This document shows, in pieces, positions 2,231 to 52,543 of a stretch of DNA of 64,000 nucleotides. The stretch spans positions 2,560,001-2,624,000 of the forward strand of contig CP166615.1 of the NCBI GenBank assembly GCA_041937175.2, given 5' to 3'. Origin of the DNA: Limnothrix sp. BL-A-16. GTDB lineage: Bacteria; Cyanobacteriota; Cyanobacteriia; CACIAM-69d. The notes below the pieces were generated by a model that was not told the origin of the DNA, did not search any database, and saw only the letters and a list, made by a program, of their open reading frames with translations. Both the position numbers and the translations under genes were made by a program. Every line of letters starts with the position of its first letter. Position 1 is the first letter of the stretch.

Positions 2231-3403
2231 TTGAACTCCCTGCTCACCGACCTGACCAAACTTCGCCCCCACTTGCGATCGCGCCTGTTGCTATCTCACC
2301 TGCTGGTGGTTTTCCTCAGCATCGGTAGCTTTGCGTTGGTGGGTTGGTTTTCGTCCCCCAAAACCTTTGTTTGGAAGCTGGATGAGCTGGAGGTGCGGGG
2401 GTTTCGGTTGCGCTATGCCCGCACGCAACTGGTGAACAGTTTTGGGTTTGTGTTGCAGCAAAGCACTCTTTGGTCAGCGCTGGTGGGGGCCACGGCGGCA
2501 GGGGCCTTTAGCTATTGGGCGGCTTTGCGGATTGCACGGCCCCTGAAGCATATGGAAGAGGTGACTGTACGGTTTGCCTCGGGGGAACTGGATGCCCGCA
2601 TCCAAGCCAGTGATATTCCAGAACTAAATCAGTTGGGCAGTAGTTTCAACCGTTTGGCCACGAGCTTGGAGGGCACGGAGCAGCGCCGCCGGGATTTGAT
2701 CAGCGACCTGACCCATGAACTGCGCACACCGCTGACGGTGGTGAGGGGCTATCTCGAAGAACTGAGTGAAGGGCGGATTGATCCCACGCCGGATTTGTTC
2801 GATCGCCTGATTCGCGAAACCAAACGGCTGGAGCGACTGGTGAGCGACACTCAAGAGCTATCGCGGGCAGAAACGGGCTATTTACCGATTCATGTGCAGT
2901 CGATCGACCTGCGGCCACTGTTGGAATCAATCATCAACCGCATTGCCGATCAGGTGTTTGATGATGAACCGAGGTTAATTCTCGACTGCCCGGCGGTCCT
3001 GCCGCTGGTGGCCGCCGATCCCGATCGGGTGGAACAGGTGTTGCTGAATCTGATGGGCAATGCCTTACGCCACACCACCTGTGGCTCAATTCGCCTTTGG
3101 GCCAGTCCCAAGGATGAACGCGCCCTTTGGGTGGGGGTCACGGATACGGGGGAAGGCATTTCTGAGGAAGATTTGCCCCATGTGTTTGAGCGATTTTGGC
3201 GTGCCGATCGCAGTCGTTGCCGCCATGAGGGCCGCCAATCCGCTGGCGTGGGGATTGGGCTATCCATTTCCCGGCGATTGGTGGAGCTTCAGGGGGGTGA
3301 AATGGAGGTGACCAGCGAGCTAGGCAAGGGCAGCACGTTTCAATTCAGCCTCCCGATCGCGATCGGGAGCGAGAAACTTCAGAAAAACATCGAAACAAAT
3401 TAG
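2231..3403 (+). CDS. membrane sensor histidine kinase (HAMP-HisKA-HATPase)
   Basis: Two TM segments, HAMP, H-box HELRTPL, N-box NLMGNA, DTGEG, G2 GIGL. Confidence 0.95.
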   Translation: MNSLLTDLTKLRPHLRSRLLLSHLLVVFLSIGSFALVGWFSSPKTFVWKLDELEVRGFRLRYARTQLVNSFGFVLQQSTLWSALVGATAAGAFSYWAALRIARPLKHMEEVTVRFASGELDARIQASDIPELNQLGSSFNRLATSLEGTEQRRRDLISDLTHELRTPLTVVRGYLEELSEGRIDPTPDLFDRLIRETKRLERLVSDTQELSRAETGYLPIHVQSIDLRPLLESIINRIADQVFDDEPRLILDCPAVLPLVAADPDRVEQVLLNLMGNALRHTTCGSIRLWASPKDERALWVGVTDTGEGISEEDLPHVFERFWRADRSRCRHEGRQSAGVGIGLSISRRLVELQGGEMEVTSELGKGSTFQFSLPIAIGSEKLQKNIETN

Positions 3404-3462
3404 CAGTAGTAGCATGACAGGCTTAATACATTGGGTCGAAGTTGCGGAGCCAGTCGTGGTAA

Positions 3463-3482: not shown

Positions 3483-3665
3483 CTGCCTAACGATTTGGTG
3501 ACGGTAACAGCCATGTAATTTAACCCAGTGAATTAGGGCAGCCACGCTAGTAGAAACATCCAGAAAACTTGAACCCCTCTCCCCAGCCCGAGCGATCGCC
3601 CAGGTAATCACACCAGTCATCGCCCAAATAATTGCCCAAATAATTGCCCCAGCAATGATCAGAAA

Positions 3666-4292
3666 CTATTCCACCTCGCGCCGACCTTCGAGGGCCTTCG
3701 CCAAGGTAACCTCATCGGCATATTCCAACTCACCCCCCACGGGCAACCCAAATGCAATTCTGGTCACCTTGGTAAAGGGCTTCAGGAGTTGAGACAGATA
3801 AAGGGTGGTGGTTTCCCCTTCAATGCTGGGCCCGATCGCCAAAATTACCTCATGGGTCTTTTCGCGATGCACCCGCTGCACCAGGGGCTGAATCGTCAGG
3901 CTTTCGGGGCCAATGCCATCCATAGGGGAAATGACTCCGCCCAAGACGTGGTAGCGCCCACGATATTCACGAGTGCGCTCGATCGCAATCAGATCCCGCG
4001 AGTCCGCCACCACACAGATCGTCTGTTGATCGCGGTTCGGGTTGCTGCAAACCTCGCAAACCGGCTCCGCCGAGAGGTGATAGCAAACCTGACAATGGCC
4101 CACCTGTTGCTTGGCATCCAGCAGCGCTTGGGCAAGGGTTTGAATTTCCGCCTCCGGGCGATTCAACAGATACAGCGCCAACCGCTGGGCAGATTTAGGG
4201 CCAATGCCCGGTAGCCGTTGCAATTGCTCAATTAATCGAGCCAAAGGACGAGTATAAACAGCACACCTCCTGCGCTGCGCCGCGTAAGGCAC
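3666..4292 (-). CDS. recR: recombination mediator RecR (start at GTG 4292 or non-canonical GTT 4259)
   Basis: [14 protein letters not shown]4 zinc finger [36 protein letters not shown]. Confidence 0.97.
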
Positions 4293-4369
4293 CAGTTTGT
4301 TTCGCAGCCGCGTATTCTAGCACTTCCCTTTCGGGCAAGCGGAGCCTACAATCGTGCTGATTTTTCGCA

Positions 4370-5062
4370 ATGGCTGGAACTATGACCGAGGCTCCGATCG
4401 ATCGCGCTCCCGAGCCTAACTTGGTCTCCCCTCAACTGTCCGGTGACCTCTTAGCGCTCTATCAAAACCTGCCCCCGATCGCCCTGGGCGTATTAGCCTC
4501 GGGAAGTGGCAGTAATTTTGAAACCATCATGGAGGCGATCGCCGATGGCCGCTTACGGGCAGAGGTGAAAGTGCTGATTTACAACAACCCCGGGGCCAAA
4601 GTCGCCGCCCGGGCAGCCCGCTGGGGCGTGACCGCCGTTCTCCTCGACCATCGCCAATACCCCGATCGAAACCAGTTTGACGCGGCCGTTGTCCAAGCGC
4701 TCCAAGCCGCTGGAGTGGAATGGGTTGCCATGGCCGGTTGGATGCGGCGGGCCACCGAAACCCTCGTCAATGCCTTTCCCCAACGGGCCATCAACATTCA
4801 CCCCAGCCTGTTGCCCAGCTTTCCCGGCATTCGGGCCGTTGAACAAGCCCTCGCCGCCCAAGTCAGAATCACCGGCTGCACAGTGCATTTCGTAGAACTA
4901 GAGGTGGACAGCGGCCCCATCCTGATGCAGGCTGCTGTTCCCGTTTACCCCACCGACAACGCCGAAACGCTCCACGCCAGAATTCAAACCCAAGAGCATT
5001 TGATTTTTCCCCAGGCGATCGCCCTGGCCATCGCCCAAGCCAATCAAGCCACTCAGCCCTAG
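4370..5062 (+). CDS. purN: phosphoribosylglycinamide formyltransferase
   Basis: LASGSGSNFE, INIHPSLLPSFPG, TGCTVHFV..VDSGPI. Confidence 0.95.
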   Translation: MAGTMTEAPIDRAPEPNLVSPQLSGDLLALYQNLPPIALGVLASGSGSNFETIMEAIADGRLRAEVKVLIYNNPGAKVAARAARWGVTAVLLDHRQYPDRNQFDAAVVQALQAAGVEWVAMAGWMRRATETLVNAFPQRAINIHPSLLPSFPGIRAVEQALAAQVRITGCTVHFVELEVDSGPILMQAAVPVYPTDNAETLHARIQTQEHLIFPQAIALAIAQANQATQP

Positions 5063-44400: not shown

Positions 44401-47400
44401 CATCCTTGACAGTCAAGTCTCAAGTGTTGACTGGTGGTTCAGAAGGGGCAGGTGCACTGGTTTTAAACAGAGCCGAGAGTGAGGCCTTCTGGCTCAGAGG
44501 AGATTTCTTCATCGGTCAGTATATGATTGGTGCAGCCAACTTTGGACTGCCCACTTCGGATCGATACAAGTTTGGAAGTGGTGAGCGACAAGACTTTGAG
44601 ACAGGCGCTGTTTTTTATACAGGCTCTTCTTTCACTACCTTGCTTGGTCAGGCAGGAAGTTATTATCAAAAAACGCTGACGAACGCCCAGCGTAACCAAC
44701 TGGGTATGCTGACTGGATCAGCAGTTTTCTCCAATGGGCAATTTACTTACCCCTTCGCTGGTGGCAGCCTAAAGTACAGCTCGTCGGGCGTATTCTCCAT
44801 CGAGTTTAACTGGACAAATTATCCTTCCGTAGCTGCTGGTAACTGGACGGGTACAGGATCAGTACGTCTGCAAAATCCGCCTCAACCTGGGACGATGGCT
44901 GGTTTACCCAATACAGCAGGTGCTTATCAATACAGCACTAGAAGTGCCAACGGTGCGATCGCCCACTATTACGCGAATGGCAACCTTCAGCAACAACCCA
45001 ACAGCGCCAAGATCTACTGGTATCAAATACCGGGCACTACCCAGTTGTCATCAACCAACCCCATTACTACACCAACATCAACCAAACTCACTCCTGCTTC
45101 AGTACTCTTCGATCAGCCTGTCATCAGCTATGAGAGTAACGCGCCAGCATCACTCAATCTTTATTCAAGTCTCAAGCAAGGAAGTTTGAGCAGCACCAAC
45201 CCTGACGACCTGTTCTATTTTGATGTTACGAAGCCTGGCGAGTATATTCAGTGGAACGCCAAAACATTGTCTGGCAATCTCAGGATGCAAATTATTCGGG
45301 ATGCCAACAATAACAACCTTTTGGATGCTAACGAAACAGTCAAGACAATTTCTCTAGGCTCCAATAGCAGCCAATCGATGACTTTTGAGGACAAGGGACG
45401 TTACTATATTCGTCTTTTGCCTGAATCTGGAAGTTCAGCAAGCTACCAGTTGAGTGCGATCGGCTCGCCTTACCGCCCCCTTCATCACGGCGCTGACTTC
45501 AACCGTGACGGGCTAACCGATTTTGCGTACCAAGGAAAAGGAGCTGGCAACAATAGTGCAAGCGTATTTACCTATGGTGCTGCTGGGATCGGCAAATTCA
45601 CTGATCTTCGTAATGATCTTGAGGGTAGTCGTGTCAACTTGATTTGGGGTGACTTTAATGGCGATCGTCGCCCAGACTACATCCGGCAGGAAAAAGCAGA
45701 TTGGGCAACTTGGAACAATAGCAACAATACAAGCAACATTAATGGAAACAACACTACTGAAAACAACACTGAATTGTGGCTAGCTGGTGCTGATGGCAAG
45801 AGTTTTTACGAGGAGCGGGATCTAGAGGCAGCGACTGGTAGTAGCTTCAATGGCAATTTTGTAAACCTCATCCCTGGCGATTTCAATGGCGATGGGAAAA
45901 CAGACTTCATCCGCCAAGAAAAAAGTGACTGGGATAACCATGGCAGTCGCGATGCCGAAGTGTGGCTCAATACGGGTGCTGTTGACTTCAAAATGGTTCA
46001 CAGCCTGACTTTCAATGGCGATGGATTTAAGGGTGATTACGTCAACCTCATCCCTGGCGACTTTGATGGTGACGGCCGGACAGATTTTATCCGACAGGAG
46101 AAAAATAACTGGGATGACGATGGAAGCAACACAGCCGTTGTGTTTCTGTCTAATGGCAATGGCCAGTTTCGTCAGGGAGCCGTTCTCAATAACTCCGAAA
46201 ATGATCTGCGGGGAGATTTTACGAATCTAATCCCCGGTGACTTCAATGGTGATGGAAAAACAGACTTCATTCGTCAGGAAAAGAATACCTGGGATGACGA
46301 TGAAGGTCGTACCGCCGAAGTCTGGCTATCCAATGGAGGTATGAGTCAATTCACTCGTGTTTCAACTCCTCTCCGCCATGATGGTGATGACTTCAAGGGT
46401 AGTTTCGTCAATATTATTCCCGGTGACTTCAATGGCGACGGGCGCACTGATATCCTGCGCCAGAAGTTTGGCCCACGAGATCAGGACAACCATCGAACAG
46501 CAGAAATTTTTCTGTCAAATGGAGATGGGACGTTCAGCAAAAATCCCCAATTGATTCAGTATGGGAATAACTATTTCAAAGGAACCTCCACCAACATTTT
46601 GACGGGCGCACTGGGCGGTACTGCTCCATTTTACGAACATACAGACAGCAGGAGTGGCTGGGTTGTTGAGTATCATGGCTGGCCTAGCAATCGTCCCAAA
46701 CCTGTGGATTTAGGGTGGGATCGTGATGATGTTCTTGGATCGACGCGGCTTGATTCCAATATCCGTTCAGATGGTAAGCGTGGCTTCCAGATGGATTGGG
46801 GACATGATGCGCCGGATGCGCGAGTTCCTAATGATCAGTTTGCGATGCGTGCCTATACTCAATACAGCTTTGAGGCAGGTAAGACCTATGTGGCAAAGGT
46901 GAAAGCAGATGATGGTTATCGTCTCTTTGCCAAACATATTGGCACGAACAAATGGGAAAACTTCATGGCCGATGGATTCCGTAAAGATGCTTACGGAGCG
47001 CACAAAGAAATTCAGTTTACTGTGCCGCAGTCGGGTACCTATGACTTCCACTTCGAGTTCTATGATGACACCAGCGATGCCTACTTCGATTTAACAATTG
47101 ATGAGGCTTCTCGTGTAGAAAACTACTACCCTAACATCGAGTCAACACTCATCGAGTTCTTTGGAAATCGTGCCAATACAAATGGCGAAGATTGGTCTCA
47201 AAGGAGCATTGACACAATGTGGGATCGTATTTCTGGTGAGAGTGCTCAGTTTGGAACCAGAGCGAGTAGTTTCTATGATTCTGGAGATATTTGGCAGCAG
47301 GATTCGCCTGAGGATATTTTGAGAATTTATGACGATCTTTCTCGGGATATTCTAGGGTCTGTTAAGCCTCTGACCACGGGCTATGCCTATGACAGAGGAT

Positions 47401-48338
47401 ACTACTCAGCGTATGGTGCTCATTCTGGCTTGGATATTGATACCATTCGTGGAGATGTAATTCGATCTGCAACACGAGGAAAGTTCGCTTTTGCCAAGCA
47501 CTATCAGTCTCCTGGGAATCCCAACGGTTGGTGGATTGCAATTGACGAGATAGATGCTAATGATGCAAGAACTGGACGGCGCTGGTGGTACGGACACCTT
47601 GGTAGCTCTCGCTTCTCATCTGTTGGGGAAATCATTGAGCGTGGAACTGTGATTGGAGATGCTGGCGACGAGAGTGGCTATGCAAACCATCTTCATCTTA
47701 TGGTGGTGAATACATACGGAGACCCACCAACTTCTTGGAATGAGGCGGTTAACGGGACAGGACGTGGTTATGCAGGAGATGTACAAAACGTCCTAGAACG
47801 AACCATGAGCCCACTCCAAGCTTACTGGGAGTCTCGCAATGAGAATGGGCAACCTCCTGGTAACAATATTCAAGTGCCTAGTAGTGGAACTGTCAGTCAA
47901 GCAGGTTTAGAGTTCATTGCTCGGCATGAAGGTCTACGATTGGATCTGTACAACGATCCTGCAGGACATTGCACAATTGGTGTTGGTCATCTAGTTCATC
48001 GAGGTAACTGCAACGGCAGTGAATCAACAGAGTTTCGGAACGGAATTACAAGAGACCGTGCCCTTGATCTTCTGAACCAAGATGCTAGTGGCGCAGCCAA
48101 CACCGTCCGCCAGTACGTAACTGTGCCTTTGAATCAGAATCAGTTTGATGCTTTGGTCAGCTTTGTTTTTAATGTGGGATCGGGTAACTTTCAAGCATCC
48201 AATCTCTTAATACGTTTGAACCAAGGAGAGTATAGTGCTGTTCCTTCAGAGCTCAATCGTTGGAATAAGGCTGGTGGTGTGGTACTACCAGGCTTAGTTA
48301 CACGCCGGAAGGAAGAAGGCGATCTCTTTACCAGCTAG
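41484..48338 (+). CDS. giant multidomain protein: DUF4114 - S8 subtilase - LGFP-like - PPC - FG-GAP repeats - PA14 - M23 peptidase - GH24 lysozyme
   Basis: FEDL..DRDYNDIVV; IDTG/HGTH/AAGN/GTS; GDFNGDGKTD repeats; DWG..P..F..R..ADDG; HSGLD..HLH; HEGLRLDLYNDPAGHCTIGVG..NQFDALVSF..GLVTRR. Confidence 0.9.
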   Translation: MSDSIFGLPEFVEPTPLGVVPTSQPTIDLSRLLPPVLANGLSTSERLEQIQQLQTGSLTDPILGSNPQATVPAGRTQNVRRNPALGNGTSTPTGDGGLGGTASPIDPLTGDSLDDSSTTADGSTGAIEPKPALTSLSTAPTSPDIQFTSGAFTALSATASVEFQWDGGGYSNTQLGIFSLEGMEQFTGDAFHREAARRATTNSPTGHLLIDDRTEGAKFSGKLNHEDNFNQGPFNGVKTFSITPGAKYGLILIPDGKLADIATGAAQAEGSRRPLYSMATANPDQLFQAGQLVEVGSDPTRGNTYVFEDLRLDQGSDRDYNDIVVRLRGFSGSVPSIDQYIDSNKDWRKEEAGKLLLADALPYVTVEPSQPAPSAPTPSPSPAPGNDPSSSTTTPPTPAPGPTPPNTEPPAPSTPVPSTTPVISPLGTFPWTYPTPEDLAAAAITPASKFPIVGVIDTGFARSNPDLDYSKIVWGKDYIDNDADPLLNPGEGNEHGTHILGLISALRNNGVGIDGLAPDAPIWAARAVGSGNWAKALVDYVDYIKSKGQTRGLVNLSFDLTQKNADGTISTRYEFTPEERVAIETARQAGVILVVAAGNSGTGDMSVLAQAAQEFDNIISVAAAEQIDRSVAIADGAAKTDYSSSGKKLTLSAIGGTIEQGIPSLLAEGLGTMAGTSVATAKVTANAALAWAANPSLNYLQVKDVLTKTATDIEAPGYDELTGYGIVNGAAAISLAKMTKGETYNPEPWFAPDSWSGEGFATPWEREVAALDSYAIRSNPSSSGYMGLFLYDARWYQMSAEAIERDDVRRNFLGYSHATFRTFVDFVPPRISNDIRLVPVAYHAGVPYKWTTKSTSTLKAELGRDPTFDDLVRIARPDLVPGDPAYAAFELFLVRQHKARPVSTTGTGRTGVLSSSPLVYIPQPWTELANFATLVPDTISLANSAYAKNGGSSTLGSPVSGQGLGKFDSQIYSSLTVKSQVLTGGSEGAGALVLNRAESEAFWLRGDFFIGQYMIGAANFGLPTSDRYKFGSGERQDFETGAVFYTGSSFTTLLGQAGSYYQKTLTNAQRNQLGMLTGSAVFSNGQFTYPFAGGSLKYSSSGVFSIEFNWTNYPSVAAGNWTGTGSVRLQNPPQPGTMAGLPNTAGAYQYSTRSANGAIAHYYANGNLQQQPNSAKIYWYQIPGTTQLSSTNPITTPTSTKLTPASVLFDQPVISYESNAPASLNLYSSLKQGSLSSTNPDDLFYFDVTKPGEYIQWNAKTLSGNLRMQIIRDANNNNLLDANETVKTISLGSNSSQSMTFEDKGRYYIRLLPESGSSASYQLSAIGSPYRPLHHGADFNRDGLTDFAYQGKGAGNNSASVFTYGAAGIGKFTDLRNDLEGSRVNLIWGDFNGDRRPDYIRQEKADWATWNNSNNTSNINGNNTTENNTELWLAGADGKSFYEERDLEAATGSSFNGNFVNLIPGDFNGDGKTDFIRQEKSDWDNHGSRDAEVWLNTGAVDFKMVHSLTFNGDGFKGDYVNLIPGDFDGDGRTDFIRQEKNNWDDDGSNTAVVFLSNGNGQFRQGAVLNNSENDLRGDFTNLIPGDFNGDGKTDFIRQEKNTWDDDEGRTAEVWLSNGGMSQFTRVSTPLRHDGDDFKGSFVNIIPGDFNGDGRTDILRQKFGPRDQDNHRTAEIFLSNGDGTFSKNPQLIQYGNNYFKGTSTNILTGALGGTAPFYEHTDSRSGWVVEYHGWPSNRPKPVDLGWDRDDVLGSTRLDSNIRSDGKRGFQMDWGHDAPDARVPNDQFAMRAYTQYSFEAGKTYVAKVKADDGYRLFAKHIGTNKWENFMADGFRKDAYGAHKEIQFTVPQSGTYDFHFEFYDDTSDAYFDLTIDEASRVENYYPNIESTLIEFFGNRANTNGEDWSQRSIDTMWDRISGESAQFGTRASSFYDSGDIWQQDSPEDILRIYDDLSRDILGSVKPLTTGYAYDRGYYSAYGAHSGLDIDTIRGDVIRSATRGKFAFAKHYQSPGNPNGWWIAIDEIDANDARTGRRWWYGHLGSSRFSSVGEIIERGTVIGDAGDESGYANHLHLMVVNTYGDPPTSWNEAVNGTGRGYAGDVQNVLERTMSPLQAYWESRNENGQPPGNNIQVPSSGTVSQAGLEFIARHEGLRLDLYNDPAGHCTIGVGHLVHRGNCNGSESTEFRNGITRDRALDLLNQDASGAANTVRQYVTVPLNQNQFDALVSFVFNVGSGNFQASNLLIRLNQGEYSAVPSELNRWNKAGGVVLPGLVTRRKEEGDLFTS

Positions 48339-48347
48339 ATACGAAGC

Positions 48348-48372
48348 GGGCGATCGCCCTTGCTAGACTGGG
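48348..48372 (+). repeat. 25-bp direct repeat copy 1 (HIP1 + extended -10-like TGCTAGACT)
   Basis: gggcgatcgcccttgctagactggg; 24/25 identical to 49086-49110. Confidence 0.85.
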
Positions 48373-48413
48373 AATCGCCAGCCGATCGCCCCCACGAGAT
48401 CTGAGGCAACCCT

Positions 48414-48647
48414 ATGGCTCTGTTAACGCTGGAAATTTCCCTAGAGATTCTTTTAGAAGCGATCGCCCATTGGGATCGGAGTGATCGACTGCAACTGTGG
48501 CAATTCCTCAGTGACGATCTTTTCAGCGATGTGGAAACAGAGATCGATCGATCGCCCACCGAAGATCTCCGACAATCACTTCAGGAAATGCACTCAGGGC
48601 AAACTTTTCCCATCGAACAAATGTGGCTGGTCGTCGAAGCCAATTAA
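48414..48647 (+). CDS. putative type II antitoxin
   Basis: 77-aa acidic ORF 6 bp upstream of the RelE-like gene; LRQSLQEMHSGQTFPIEQMW. Confidence 0.7.
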   Translation: MALLTLEISLEILLEAIAHWDRSDRLQLWQFLSDDLFSDVETEIDRSPTEDLRQSLQEMHSGQTFPIEQMWLVVEAN

Positions 48648-48653
48648 CCAGCC

Positions 48654-48986
48654 ATGTCAATCGAGGTTACACCCACCTTCACGCGAAAGGTTCGCACCCT
48701 GCTTAAGCGTTATCGAAGTCTGCGCCAAGACTTACAGCCCATACTAGACCAACTCGCGCAGGGCGAACGTCCCGGTGATCGCCTCCAAGGCATGTCGCTT
48801 AACGTCTTCAAAGTACGAATTAAAAACAGTGATATTGGCAAGAGAAAAAGCGCTGGATATCGTCTGATCTATTACGCAGAATTAGCAGAACGAATTGTTC
48901 TATTAACGATTTATAGCAAAAGTGATCGCACAGATATTGGTTCGCAAGAAATTCTTGAAATTCTTCGTGAATTCGATTCGCCCTAA
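48654..48986 (+). CDS. RelE/ParE (HigB-like) type II toxin
   Basis: FKVRIKNSDIGKRKSAGYRLIYY..LLTIYSKSD. Confidence 0.85.
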   Translation: MSIEVTPTFTRKVRTLLKRYRSLRQDLQPILDQLAQGERPGDRLQGMSLNVFKVRIKNSDIGKRKSAGYRLIYYAELAERIVLLTIYSKSDRTDIGSQEILEILREFDSP

Positions 48987-49085
48987 AATAGCATCATGCA
49001 CCTCGATGATCAGCAACCTTAAAGATCATAGCTGCGATCCGAGTTTGATAAGGCGACCGTAGCACTATGATCGTGACCCATCGCA

Positions 49086-49110
49086 GGGTGATCGCCCTTG
49101 CTAGACTGGG
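49086..49110 (+). repeat. 25-bp direct repeat copy 2
   Basis: gggtgatcgcccttgctagactggg, 40 bp before the Uma2 ATG. Confidence 0.85.
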
Positions 49111-49150
49111 GTTCAGTTCCCTTGGCTTGCAGCGTTGCTCACCCTAGCCC

Positions 49151-49768
49151 ATGGTTGCCCTGCCCGATCGCCTCTCCGTCACGGACTACTTTGCCCTAGA
49201 AGCCATCAGCCCCACCAAGCATGAGTATTGGGATGGCTATCTGGTGGCCATGGCCGGGGCGAGCGATGCCCATGTGGCGATCGTGGGCAACCTATTTGCT
49301 GCGCTGTTGGGACACATTGCGCCGCCCTGTCGGATCTATATAACTGATATGCGCCTGCAAATTGCCAATAAAAATCGCTATTTTTATCCCGATCTCCTGG
49401 TGACTTGCGACCCCAGAGATACGATCATTACGCCTGAAAATAATTACGCCAAACAGTTTCCAACCTTAATTGTTGAAGTGCTGTCAGACACCACAGAACT
49501 ACGCGATCGCGGTAGCAAGTTTTTTGACTATCAACAGATCGAAAGTCTCCAGGAATATGCCCTGATTAATACCAATTGTCAGCGCGTTGAATGCTTCCGT
49601 CGTAACCAGGAGGATGATTGGGTACTGACCACCTACACACCCGATCGCGCCGATCGATTCCAACTCAAATCCATCGACTTTACGGGAACCCTGACGCAGC
49701 TTTATCGCAATGCGATCGCCCTGCCCAGTTCCCCAGCCTTTGATTCAGACCCACCCGATCGCCCTTAG
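49151..49768 (+). CDS. Uma2-family (DUF820) PD-(D/E)XK endonuclease
   Basis: KHEYWDG..AMAGAS..H, YPDLLVTC, IVEVLS.TTE.RDRG.KF..Y. Confidence 0.93.
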   Translation: MVALPDRLSVTDYFALEAISPTKHEYWDGYLVAMAGASDAHVAIVGNLFAALLGHIAPPCRIYITDMRLQIANKNRYFYPDLLVTCDPRDTIITPENNYAKQFPTLIVEVLSDTTELRDRGSKFFDYQQIESLQEYALINTNCQRVECFRRNQEDDWVLTTYTPDRADRFQLKSIDFTGTLTQLYRNAIALPSSPAFDSDPPDRP

Positions 49769-50093
49769 TCGCCATCACCGTCACTATCTCCTATGGCAGT
49801 TTTATCCACTTGATGGGAGGAGCGATTGCCCTTGCTCGGCCCGCCAGCCCTCGCTCTTGCAACAATTAAAGGCTTTTATTAAAGATTGAATGAAGGATTG
49901 TCCGAAAAAAGGTTTTTAGTTGCTTAAGTTAAAGATTTTGTGAAAAGTAGACTCAAAAACGACTAATTTGGCGGATATTTTTTAAGTTTTAATTGATACA
50001 TCAAAGCTTATTTATCTCCAGCTCTATCGATATAATCAATGCAGGGTGACAGTCATTGAATTGTCTTCATCTTGATATTCCCCCCATAGATCT

Positions 50094-51014
50094 ATGAAGC
50101 TTCTTAAAACGGCTCTGAGTTTGACTGCGATTGTCACCTCTTCAGTGGCCGCCTGCTTGGCAGGTTCTGCGCCAGCCCAAGCCTATCGAATGTTTTTAGG
50201 CGAAGATTTAAATTCAAACCCTTGGGCTCCAACCTCTAATCGCACCAACTCTCAGGCAGCAGAAGCCGCTTTTTTGTCAAATTTGACCGGTGTGGGTACT
50301 GAGACCTTTGAAAGTCAAATCACCGGCACTAACAATCTTCTAAATGTTTCATTTCCCGGAGCTGGAACGGCAACACTCTCGGGAAATGGTCGAATTTCAA
50401 GCGTGCCCGTGGGCTGGACAAATGGCGTTGGTCGCTATGCCGTTTCTGGGACTCAATTTTGGGAAGTGGACGCTGGGGGACACTTCACAATCAATTTCAG
50501 TCAGCAGGTGGGAGCTTTTGGGTTTTATGGGGTTGATATTGGTGATTTTGGTGGCCAATTAACCCTGACTTTGGCGGGCGCATCCACCACAAAACAGGTG
50601 ACGGTTAATAACACAATCGGCTCGTCGGGCAGCACGGATGGTTCTGTGCTGTTCTTTGGCATTATTGCGGAAACGATGGAGGAGGCGTTCAGTAGTGTTT
50701 CCTTCAGCATGTCAACGGGTCAAGGCGATGTTTTTGCCTTTGACAACATGACGGTGGGCGGTCTGTCTCAGGTCAAAACTCCGGAGCCATCCCCCCAGCC
50801 CAGTCCTGAGCCGACTCCGGAACCCAGTCCTGAACCCACTGTGACTCCGGAACCCGGCCCTAGCCCAACCCCCAGCCCCTCAGCAACTCCTACGCCGCAA
50901 CCCACGCAGCCCACGGATCCGGTGTCAGTGCCGGAGCCGGGATCGATCGGGGCCTTGTTCCTGGTGGGAGCCATGGGAGTCCTGGGTTTGGGTCGTCGTC
51001 GCCGCGCTGACTGA
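50094..51014 (+). CDS. PEP-CTERM sorting-domain surface protein
   Basis: Signal peptide ..AQA, Pro/Glu/Thr linker, VPEPGS-TM-RRRR tail. Confidence 0.92.
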   Translation: MKLLKTALSLTAIVTSSVAACLAGSAPAQAYRMFLGEDLNSNPWAPTSNRTNSQAAEAAFLSNLTGVGTETFESQITGTNNLLNVSFPGAGTATLSGNGRISSVPVGWTNGVGRYAVSGTQFWEVDAGGHFTINFSQQVGAFGFYGVDIGDFGGQLTLTLAGASTTKQVTVNNTIGSSGSTDGSVLFFGIIAETMEEAFSSVSFSMSTGQGDVFAFDNMTVGGLSQVKTPEPSPQPSPEPTPEPSPEPTVTPEPGPSPTPSPSATPTPQPTQPTDPVSVPEPGSIGALFLVGAMGVLGLGRRRRAD

Positions 51015-51181
51015 TAGGTAAGCCAAAGCTGTACAACGGGATCGCTGATCGGGAAGATTGCAGGAAATCTAAAGAAGCACCTGCAAGAGATCGAGAGGCA
51101 TCGGAGACAATGCCAAGCTGGAAAGATTCCCAGCTCGGGTTTCTGCCGCTTGGTTCTCTCTTCCTTCAACGGGTTAAAACC

Positions 51182-52543
51182 ATGACCGATCGACCTGCGC
51201 TGCTGATTCGGAACGCTCGCATCCTGTTGCCCGAAGGGGATTTCCTGCAAGGCGATGTGTGGATCGAAGGCGATCAGATTCGGCAGGTGGCTCCTGAAAT
51301 TTCCCCCGACACGATCGGGCCGATCGACCGTGAAATTGACGCAACGGGTTTGACCCTGTTGCCGGGCGCGATCGACCCTCAAGTTCATTTCCGCGAACCA
51401 GGTTTAGAGCATAAAGAGGATCTCCGAACCGCCAGCCATGCCTGTGCCAAGGGCGGTGTCACCTCCTTTTTGGAGATGCCTAACACCAAGCCCTTAACCA
51501 CCACTCAAGCCACGCTGCAAGACAAGCTCGATCGCGCGGCGAGTAAGTGCGTGGTCAACTATGGCTTTTTCATTGGAGCCACCGCCGATCGGTTGCCGGA
51601 TTTGATCACGGCGAACCCCGTTTGCGGCATCAAGATCTTTATGGGGTCAATGCATGGCCCCTTGTTGGTGGATGAGGAGCCAATCCTTGATCAAATTTTT
51701 GCGATGGGGCAACAGCCGGGACAAACGGGCTATGGGCGCTTAATTGCTGTCCATGCCGAAAACCAAGATCGGATTCGTCAGCGCCGGGAGCAATTTGCGG
51801 GCATTACCGATCCGGCAATCCATTCCCAAATTCAAGACAACCAAGCCGCGCTGGAGGCCACACAACTGGCCCTCAAGTTGGCGCGGAAGCATCGTCGGCG
51901 GCTGCACATCTTGCACATGTCCACGGGTGATGAGGCGAACCTGATGCGTCAGGACAAGCCCGAATGGGTGACCTGTGAAGTTACCCCCCAACATTTGCTG
52001 CTGGATGTGAGTGCCTACGAAACGATCGGCACTTTTGCGCAAATGAATCCCCCCCTGCGATCGCCTGAAGATTGCGCAATTTTGTGGCAGGCCCTGCTAG
52101 ATGGGGTCATTGATTTCATTGCCACTGACCACGCCCCCCACACCTTGGAAGAAAAGGCGCAACCCTATCCCAACAGTCCCAGCGGAATGCCGGGGGTGCA
52201 AACCTCCTTGCCCCTAATGCTGACCCAGGCGGCGGCGGGGCGCTGCACGGTGGCTCAGGTGGCCCGGTGGATGTCAACCAATGTGGCCAAGGGGTTTGGC
52301 ATTCCCAACAAGGGGGCGATCGCTCCCGGATTGGATGCGGATTTGGTGTTGGTGGATCTCAATCACTACCGTCCGGTGCTGCGGGAAGAAATGCTGTCCA
52401 AATGTGGTTGGAGTCCCTTTGAGGGGTGGAATCTCACGGGTTGGCCGGTTTACACGATCGTGGGCGGCCAGGTGGCCTATGAAAACGGCCAGGTTAATGA
52501 GTCGGTGCGTGGTCGGGCCTTGAGGTTTGAACCGGCGGTGTAG
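51182..52543 (+). CDS. pyrC: dihydroorotase (amidohydrolase family)
   Basis: DPQVHFREPG, EMPNT.P, MNPPLR, IATDHAPH. Confidence 0.88.
   Translation: MTDRPALLIRNARILLPEGDFLQGDVWIEGDQIRQVAPEISPDTIGPIDREIDATGLTLLPGAIDPQVHFREPGLEHKEDLRTASHACAKGGVTSFLEMPNTKPLTTTQATLQDKLDRAASKCVVNYGFFIGATADRLPDLITANPVCGIKIFMGSMHGPLLVDEEPILDQIFAMGQQPGQTGYGRLIAVHAENQDRIRQRREQFAGITDPAIHSQIQDNQAALEATQLALKLARKHRRRLHILHMSTGDEANLMRQDKPEWVTCEVTPQHLLLDVSAYETIGTFAQMNPPLRSPEDCAILWQALLDGVIDFIATDHAPHTLEEKAQPYPNSPSGMPGVQTSLPLMLTQAAAGRCTVAQVARWMSTNVAKGFGIPNKGAIAPGLDADLVLVDLNHYRPVLREEMLSKCGWSPFEGWNLTGWPVYTIVGGQVAYENGQVNESVRGRALRFEPAV

Follow-up and report, generated by a model that had tools for sequence, protein, structure and literature searches.

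The closest analogue of the locus described here is the PeSL regulatory cassettes of T4-type phages. According to Arbiol et al. (2010, PMC2839356), small genes that are not essential lie between short promoter-bearing repeats in a hyperplastic part of the genome, recombination between these repeated promoter cassettes shuffles the genes, and the proposed mechanism is host or phage homologous recombination between the repeats, not an integrase. In cyanobacteria, HIP1 has been linked to plasmid recombination (PMC9239245, citing Akiyama 1998), and integration in PCC 7002 increases when the homology arms carry HIP1, an effect called "reminiscent of Chi" in a preprint (Kamoku & Nielsen 2024). Xu et al. 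(2018, PMC5861425) report no general HIP1-promoter association. In their passage on the Uma2 family (COG4636), Makarova, Wolf & Koonin (2009, PMC2701414) regard it as probably a solo toxin; it is abundant in cyanobacteria, mostly in cassettes of paralogous genes.

The window, the whole 64,000-nt stretch of DNA analysed here, comes from the 4,555,668-base genome of Limnothrix sp. BL-A-16 and contains a stack of modules between a giant exoprotein gene and a PEP-CTERM gene, with short repeats, here called boxes, at the module boundaries (Table 1). As in the PeSL account, the repeats mark the ends of segments that have been inserted, deleted or replaced between close relatives. The systems differ in that PeSL cassettes, as described there, are found in phage while the box locus is in a bacterial chromosome; in that the box is about 22 nt long and made up of HIP1 and a -10-like element, with neither a -35 element nor a terminator stem-loop; and in that the box cargo is toxin-antitoxin (TA) pairs and Uma2 nucleases, box promoter activity and mini-circles being putative. 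The window genome resembles the Uma2 paralogue cassettes in its 57 Uma2 matches, but here TA pairs come between Uma2 genes of unrelated subfamilies, all behind one box, and the passage on Uma2 in PMC2701414 mentions no shared junction or promoter box. Full-text literature searches found no paper describing a box common to Uma2 or TA modules.

Table 1. Features of the module stack and its borders (window coordinates)
Feature	Position	Strand	Description
Giant secreted-protein gene, 2290 aa	41466..48338	+	ORF; Pfam: S8 peptidase, DUF4114, FG-GAP repeats, M23 peptidase, phage-lysozyme domain
Box copy 1	48348..48372	+	HIP1 (GCGATCGC), then CCTTGC, TAGACT; extended -10-like TGnTAGACT
Antitoxin-like gene, 77 aa	48414..48647	+	RelN-family antitoxin model NF050107, 30.7 bits, below cut-off (70); no Pfam match
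Toxin-like gene, 110 aa	48654..48986	+	RelE PF06296, 24.7 bits (cut-off 27); ParE PF05016, 18.6 bits; both below cut-off
Spacer Y	48987..49085		Homologous to the region 5' of the Uma2a box in G003 and two metagenome loci
Box copy 2 (GGGTGATCGCCCTTGCTAGACTGGG)	49086..49110	+	Ends 40 nt ahead of the Uma2 ATG
Uma2a, Uma2-family PD-(D/E)XK nuclease gene, 205 aa	49151..49768	+	Uma2 PF05685 match
Flank X (ggcagttttatccacttgatgggaggagc)	49796..49823	+	Conserved; adjoins boxes on their left side in several settings
Half box (GCGATTGCCCTTGCT)	49822..49836	+	Left half only; HIP1 mutated; no -10
PEP-CTERM protein gene	50094..51014	+	ORF, Pfam; conserved right border of the stack

The two 25-nt repeats on which the original prediction was built are real. 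Copy 1 (GGGCGATCGCCCTTGCTAGACTGGG) starts 9 nt past the stop codon of the giant gene, which is the left border of the stack, and ends 41 nt ahead of the antitoxin ATG; it is identical to copy 2 at 24 of 25 positions. With up to three mismatches allowed, the 21-mer shared by the two copies was matched twice in the window and not at all in 100 shuffles. A genome-wide catalogue of the motif contained only these two locus copies. The conserved unit is about 22 nt, gC-GATCGCCCTTGCTAGACT-rG, that is, HIP1 plus the extended -10-like TGnTAGACT. The two ATGs follow TAGACT at 44 and 43 nt, close to the predicted distance (about 40 bp). A partial third copy (GAGCGATTGCCCTTGCT, 49820-49836) was also predicted. 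By itself this copy is not significant, because its 17-mer has 131 matches at up to two mismatches in a genome with 5235 HIP1 sites. It is kept, however, in the congener G002 as GAGCGATCGCCCTTGCTCGGCC, and its left flank X of about 25 nt (GGTTTTGTCCAYTCGATGGRGGAGC-like) also stands before full boxes in other contexts; judged by sequence and context, it is a genuine truncated box. This half box is the right end of the stack, the next gene start coming only after 257 nt. The predicted spacings of 738 and 734 bp were measured correctly, but their similarity is coincidental, the distances between successive boxes in G002 being 782, 298, 339 and 729 bp.

Each interval holds one unrelated module, a TA-like pair and then a Uma2 gene, just as predicted. 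The TA-like ORFs are separated by 6 nt, with the antitoxin-like ORF first, and their family-model scores fall below the cut-offs. Uma2a scored 113.5 bits against PF05685, above the Pfam gathering cut-off of 27, and is 81% identical in amino acids to its orthologue in the related genome G003. In G003 and two metagenome loci, the counterpart of spacer Y serves as leader to a VapB-like gene on the minus strand. The two metagenome loci carry this gene within a stretch of about 274 bp that is absent from the window, where Y may be a relic. Over all loci, the box heads a RelNE-like TA pair, VapBC and three unrelated Uma2 genes, Uma2a, Uma2c and Uma2d, which gave no blastp match to one another at E<=1e-3. 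For each of the three there is a closer, box-less paralogue in the genome (50, 39 and 50% identity, respectively). The box is the only sequence common to the modules. The idea that it is a general Uma2 promoter was rejected, since it stands at only 1 of the 45 Uma2 genes examined (out of 57) in the window genome and the next best match has 5 mismatches.

In all, 22 full and 2 half boxes were collected from four genomes that belong to a single cyanobacterial family and include a Limnothrix relative, and from six metagenome contigs, where the copies were found by exact match and box identity is therefore by construction. In representative genomes of 185,579 species, the exact 18-mer occurred at 4 cyanobacterial loci, all in one family, and at 2 non-cyanobacterial positions. 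Besides the six metagenome contigs, which are HIP1-rich, seven HIP1-free contigs matched the 18-mer; the latter matches are taken as chance. Viral contigs gave no exact match, and a search of a plasmid collection gave no box match. When one mismatch was allowed in 401 genomes of the class, the 393 genomes outside the family had 18 scattered single matches in 16 genomes, against 3 for a reversed-pattern control; of 8 such loci inspected, 4 were inside long open frames and only one (L065) stands before a gene. At nine loci of more distant Uma2a homologues (L006-L014), the best box-like matches had 5-8 mismatches. The phenomenon is narrow, with one family and 0-4 copies per genome.

Boxes are positioned before genes. 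An ORF of at least 45 aa starts 30-44 nt downstream of 16 of the 22 full boxes; behind three others the homologous ATG is kept and the gene is truncated or degraded, and the remaining three have no gene. TGnTAGACT is retained in all 19 boxes that precede a gene or gene remnant. In two of the three gene-less boxes the key A or the last T is substituted (TCGACT and TAGACC), and the half box, with no gene behind it, lacks the -10 entirely. Further, when G000 and G003 were compared, the genes were 77-83% identical and the leader following the box was about random (0.32 ungapped), while the 18-mer was identical at 18/18 positions in both G003 copies, which had been located via gene homology and without use of the motif. 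The fixed distance of TGnTAGACT from the ATG, and mutation of the -10 only where no gene follows, make it plausible that the box acts as a promoter for its module. Having no -35, the box was not picked up by a scan for consensus promoters. The possibility that TTGCTA is a -35 paired with a -10 farther along was rejected, as no leader has a TAnnnT at the correct spacing. A -10 element requires just about 9 nt, so that a promoter role alone does not account for 22 conserved nt. The box is also dispensable for at least one gene: G003 Uma2d has lost the TTGCTAGACT part, which includes the -10, and its ORF, 98 nt behind a TA pair, is still intact.

The original prediction had the repeats delimit a stack of modules, variable between strains, that follows the giant gene; relatives were to show breakpoints at the repeat. 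The strain comparison agrees. Homology to G002 begins at 48353, within box 1, and resumes at 49090, within box 2. Over 48351-52000, the X5 and X9 contigs match the window at 98% identity; they diverge from it exactly at the box and have two additional box-led pieces upstream. An X1 contig has the same TA module with a different left flank. Of the 276 pairs that the 24 box instances form, 17 have just the left flank in common, 15 just the right one, and 9 both. Flank X is joined variously to Uma2a, Uma2d and a chromosomal flank Z. For flank Y the partners are Uma2a and a remnant of the Uma2d leader, and for flank V they are VapB and a new sequence. The box is the point about which the flanks on its two sides reassort, and modules are gained and lost precisely there between strains. 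The right border is conserved, the PEP-CTERM gene having 94% nucleotide identity in G002. The last 1.3 kb or so of the giant gene (47060-48338) is itself swapped out in relatives: the X5 and X9 contigs have 1384 other letters in place of 47060-48355, and the G002 giant gene has a different C-terminus. This giant-gene break at 47059, the truncation of the G002 antitoxin and the Y deletion are junctions at neither the box nor HIP1.

We think it somewhat probable, and favor the view, that the box is a portable promoter-type element of about 22 nt that doubles as a short-homology crossover point for small modules. A HIP1 octamer plus an extended -10-type element (TGnTAnnnT), 30-44 nt before the first start codon of the module, would travel with the gene, and being the only sequence common to the modules, the box would also be where crossovers occur. 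Modules would be added, deleted and re-ordered by the cell's own homologous or short-homology recombination at the box, probably following natural transformation and possibly favored by the HIP1 site; the outcome would be the strain-variable stack between the two border genes. We infer that host recombination, rather than a dedicated enzyme, joins the modules. About 22 bp is close to the lower limit for RecA-type exchange.

It is unlikely, though the best of the alternatives, that the box is an RNA-level element or an operator, involved in processing, stability or regulator binding on a transcript from upstream, e.g., from the giant gene, with recombination incidental. Such read-through would fit the position of box 1 just past the giant gene and the finding of no terminator-like site in 48200-50200; the conservation of 22 nt suggests recognition of something longer than a -10 element, and G003 Uma2d does without its -10 part. 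In the box regions, however, no secondary structure is conserved or significant, and Rfam gave no match at E<=1. Conservation does not extend to the left half of the HIP1 palindrome, which makes a dimeric operator unlikely; a palindromic operator was rejected on the same ground. Changes at the A and final T of TAnnnT are confined to gene-less copies, and a one-mismatch relative of the box, 33 nt 5' of a Uma2 gene in a distant cyanobacterium, has TATACT and so preserves TGnTAnnnT.

The stack had been predicted to be integron-like. Like integron arrays, it is directional and strain-variable, with small, unrelated, often TA-type modules and a repeated junction. Unlike integrons, the locus has no adjacent or recognisable intI, the 22-nt junction has no attC inverted-repeat hairpin of the kind found at the 3' end of integron cassettes, and the box is promoter-like and sits 5' of the module, its distance from the ATG being fixed. 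Most integron cassettes have no promoter; each module here has its own promoter-like box. The genome has a single PF00589 recombinase match, C1:1647960-1648454, which lies about 960 kb away from the locus, and a scan of 13 neighboring window ORFs turned up none for an integrase, resolvase or transposase. Five 85-nt box regions folded as single-stranded DNA gave no attC-like hairpin (z -1.17, -1.16, +1.55, -0.56, +0.03). With no additional copies in the genome either, the integron-like mechanism is not sustained, while the reading of the locus as a cassette stack with a recombination junction is.

A dedicated site-specific system, which is what the integron-like prediction amounts to, seems improbable. 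The box would then function like an att site whose common core is about 15 bp (GCGATCGCCCTTGCT), cut and joined by a recombinase encoded elsewhere or by a nuclease of the stack, e.g., Uma2 in a homing-like manner, and modules would move as circles. The contigs compared, in which rare forms drop out, showed no back-joint of such a circle. Boundaries at the box are sharp, and the half box, a left half joined to chromosomal flank, and the recurrent left flank X resemble attR-/attP-type hybrids. Further, at least one Uma2 gene or remnant is present in every box-bearing locus, and 22 conserved nt exceed the needs of a promoter and are similar in size to an asymmetric nuclease site. Against this stand the distant PF00589 match, the neighborhood free of recombinase genes in the ORFs scanned and the lack of a hairpin, as above; apart from HIP1 the box also shows no dyad symmetry, its left half-site varies, almost none of the Uma2 genes examined has a box, copies are few in each genome, and the same loci have been rearranged at other HIP1-like and at non-HIP1 sites. 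No more probable, in our opinion, is that the box is the purpose-built exchange site of an integrase-free counterpart of the integron, in which HIP1 as a Chi-like or uptake signal (methylation-dependent), or homing-like cutting by Uma2, would focus crossovers. If so, cyanobacteria could trade self-expressing TA/nuclease modules at a defined chromosomal slot. Finally, that the repeat is functionless, whether a local duplication of recent date or a likeness that HIP1 produced by chance, is hardly credible: HIP1 does make partial matches common, as with the 17-mer and the one-mismatch matches outside the family, but the shuffles gave no match to the 21-mer, the box is conserved at 18/18 positions across genera with saturated flanks, and its position is constant relative to five unrelated gene types.

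A promoter-type crossover box would extend recombination between repeated regulatory cassettes from T4-type phages to a bacterial chromosome, and would provide a concrete mechanism for turnover of the Uma2 and TA "cassettes" abundant in cyanobacteria. The function of HIP1 has been described as an open question for about 30 years. A 22-nt HIP1-anchored box with few identified modules and several strain haplotypes is a compact natural system for this question, and its compactness makes both the crossover-hotspot and the promoter ideas testable with simple constructs. HIP1-promoted excision was reportedly described by Robinson in 1997. As in HIP1-associated recombination, the box junction contains HIP1 and other junctions in these loci are at CGATCG-type microhomologies; the box differs in being conserved for 12-14 nt beyond HIP1, in its low copy number per genome and in being tied to gene starts. 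Junctions lay near CGATCG in 37 of 146 cases against 20.6 expected, a weak indication, the BLAST ends being noisy and non-independent and the count partly circular. Two individual joins were at plain HIP1-like microhomology: a Uma2d::Uma2a hybrid at CGATCGCC, and a fusion of a TA leader to Uma2c at GATCGCCCC.

The original prediction held that direct repeats delimit two gene cassettes. The two longer copies of the repeat, here called the box, were confirmed: a 21-mer common to them occurs twice in the window at ≤3 mismatches vs none in 100 shuffles. The same search of the whole genome (4.56 Mb, 55% G+C, 5235 HIP1 sites or 1.15 per kb) returned only these two copies. The partial third copy is present, but is not significant alone because its 17-mer has 131 genome matches at ≤2 mismatches. 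As originally described, each interval holds one gene module. One is a pair of ORFs (TA), a 77-aa RelN-like antitoxin and a 110-aa RelE/ParE-like toxin, both scoring under the family cut-offs; the other is a Uma2 nuclease gene (Uma2a, 113.5 bits). Upstream of the stack lies the giant gene, whose 2290-aa secreted product carries S8, FG-GAP, M23 and lysozyme domains, and downstream lies a gene for a PEP-CTERM protein.

Box copies in the window and module orders at related loci (B, box; half-B, left half of box only; X, sequence following Uma2a; Y, spacer before box copy 2)
Feature	Position	Sequence or module order
Box copy 1	48348-48372	GGGCGATCGCCCTTGCTAGACTGGG
Box copy 2	49086-49110	GGGTGATCGCCCTTGCTAGACTGGG
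Partial third copy	49820	GAGCGATTGCCCTTGCT
G000 (window's genome)		giant / B-TA-Y / B-Uma2a-X / half-B
G002 (congener)		giant' / Uma2d fragment / B-VapBC / B-antitoxin only / B-Uma2c remnant / B-Uma2a-X / half-B
G003 (other genus, same family)		B-TA / Uma2d; and vapCB(-) / Y / B-Uma2a
G001 (congener)		giant / B-Uma2d
Metagenome loci		further orders including B-VapBC / B-TA / B'
Metagenome loci		B-TA / Uma2c / B-Uma2d
Metagenome loci		B-(Uma2d::Uma2a hybrid) / B-TA / B''

A 3.1-kb segment around the locus was searched against 40 related genomes, and the matching loci were then read. Between the same two flanking genes, G002 carries four full boxes plus a half box; the full boxes head a VapB-like/PIN pair (PIN member, 59.5 bits), a copy of the window's antitoxin that lacks its toxin, a degraded Uma2c and a Uma2a orthologue. 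The TA pair and Uma2a of G003 are on separate contigs, each preceded by the exact 18-mer GATCGCCCTTGCTAGACT, and G001 has a box between the giant-gene homologue and a third Uma2 gene, Uma2d. Among the 276 pairs of 24 box instances, 9 shared both flanks, 17 only the left and 15 only the right; a given left flank could precede different modules, and a given module could follow different left flanks. The sequencing runs X5 and X9 yielded contigs that match 48351-52000 at 98% identity, with divergence beginning exactly at the box. Their upstream order is a box with 119 nt of a diverged antitoxin, 24 nt, a box, about 395 unaligned nt and a different, 1384-nt giant-gene end. A contig from run X1 carries another left flank on the same TA module, joined at 48353. 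Because breakpoints in all three runs fall at the box, the original prediction is not refuted on this count. These comparisons support reading the locus as a cassette stack with the box as its junction.

In X5 and X9 the 1384 unrelated letters replace the giant-gene 3' end (47060-48338, about 1.3 kb, with M23 peptidase and phage-lysozyme domains), and the C-terminus of the giant protein differs in G002 as well. No HIP1 site is present at the left breakpoint (47059). The replaced end resembles a polymorphic C-terminal effector domain, whose swapping may drive turnover of the locus. Spacer Y (48987-49085), which follows the toxin gene, shares homology with the leader of a VapB-like gene on the minus strand (MTFAELREATL...; compare the related loci L047 2202-2500 and L051 3642-4073); in G003 that gene, with a PIN gene, is divergent from Uma2a, and in two metagenome loci it lies within a stretch of about 274 bp missing from the window.

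The 22 full boxes share a span from about -2 to +20, gC-GATCGCCCTTGCTAGACT-rG, with both flanks otherwise unrelated; for copies found by motif this identity is partly by construction, while those of G002 and G003 came from gene-homology searches. Conservation does not extend to the left half of the GGGCGATCGCCC palindrome. Sixteen full boxes are followed, 30-44 nt downstream, by the start of an ORF of ≥45 aa; 3 more keep the homologous ATG before a truncated gene, and 3 have no gene behind. The box's TGnTAGACT fits an extended -10 (TGnTAnnnT). TAGACT is kept in 19/19 gene-associated copies, two of the three gene-less copies have TCGACT or TAGACC, and the half box has neither a -10 nor a gene behind it. 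A comparison of G000 with G003 gives 77-83% identity for the genes and about random similarity for the leader after the box, but 18/18 matching positions for the box. A promoter role for the box is plausible. Against this, the -10 part of the G003 Uma2d box is lost and the gene is still intact, and 22 conserved nt are more than a promoter needs. No -35 element was found at the box, and a consensus promoter scan does not call the site; no significant single-strand fold was found around the box, and Rfam gave no match to it.

The box is not inherited with one gene family. Blastp among Uma2a, Uma2c and Uma2d gave no hit to one another, and the window's genome holds a closer paralogue of each at another site (50%, 39% and 50% identity, respectively). 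The genome has 57 Uma2 (PF05685) matches, several as adjacent pairs (e.g., 1610990/1611568, 1338214/1338832, 3410380/3411171). Among the 45 with complete N-termini examined, only the window's gene has a box, the next best match having 5 mismatches.

The integron-like mechanism originally proposed is not supported: the sole PF00589 match in the genome is 960 kb from the locus, no attC-like structure was found at the boxes, genomes carry only 0-4 boxes, and a scan of 13 neighbouring window ORFs gave housekeeping types (M23/LysM peptidase, RecG, Rieske protein, LysR regulator, amidohydrolase, TPR protein, epimerase, PurD and histidine kinase). We suggest instead that the box would be a portable promoter-type cassette doubling as a short-homology crossover point used by the host recombination system, plausibly after natural transformation and plausibly aided by HIP1. 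The closest precedent is recombination between repeated regulatory cassettes, the PeSLs of T4-type phages (Arbiol et al. 2010, PMC2839356). Full-text literature searches found no published description of a box-bounded TA/Uma2 module stack. Other sources report HIP1-dependent, Chi-like stimulation of integration (Kamoku & Nielsen 2024 preprint), implicate HIP1 in site-specific recombination between plasmids (2022 paper, PMC9239245), and characterize Uma2 as a probable solo toxin that occurs in cassettes of paralogues (Makarova et al. 2009, PMC2701414).

Junctions also occur away from the box. A Uma2d::Uma2a hybrid gene is joined at a shared CGATCGCC, a natural deletion between paralogues at HIP1-like microhomology; it was seen at L056 3367-3420 and L062 (reverse strand) 3355-3420, with the first ~320 nt from Uma2d and the last ~55-65 nt from Uma2a. 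In G002, GATCGCCCC marks the point where the Uma2c remnant joins the TA leader. HIP1 is absent at the antitoxin truncation, the Y deletion and the giant-gene break. In a crude count, 37 of 146 BLAST-defined junction clusters lay ≤10 nt from CGATCG vs 20.6 ± 4.3 at random, with ends that are noisy, non-independent and partly circular. The near-identical loci L046 3135-3232 and L055 (reverse strand) 3635-4462 differ by the whole Uma2c gene; in the copy without it the Uma2d box has also lost TTGCTAGACT, so that AATCGCCCCGAGTCTCC directly abuts the ATG. On one metagenome contig a 209-aa ORF (L051 856-1485, minus), transposase-like in sequence, splits the Uma2d 5' end beside the stack.

As counter-evidence, the box phenomenon is confined to one family. 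Among representatives of 185,579 species, the exact 18-mer occurs at 4 family loci, in no other cyanobacterial genome, and in 2 non-cyanobacterial matches; it is absent from the viral contigs searched. Of 13 metagenome contigs with it, 6 are HIP1-rich and together hold 13 boxes at ≤3 mismatches, and 7 have zero HIP1 sites and unrelated contexts. When 401 class-level genomes were searched at ≤1 mismatch, every multi-copy or exact case fell in two genera of the family, and elsewhere 18 single-mismatch hits were spread over 16 genomes. Eight of these loci were inspected, and only at one does a gene follow: a cyanobacterium of a distant family (L065, G139:C16, reverse strand ~1501-2120) has GGGCGATCGCCCTTGCTATACT 33 nt ahead of a Uma2 gene (Pfam E=1.8e-13) sharing 30% identity with Uma2c. 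This pairing in another cyanobacterial family would reflect either an older, wider link or transfer. A 2-mismatch variant, GATCGCCCTTGGTGGACT, occurs once per congener (G000:C1:3388507, G001:C46:146835, G002:C47:275968), probably as one orthologous site.
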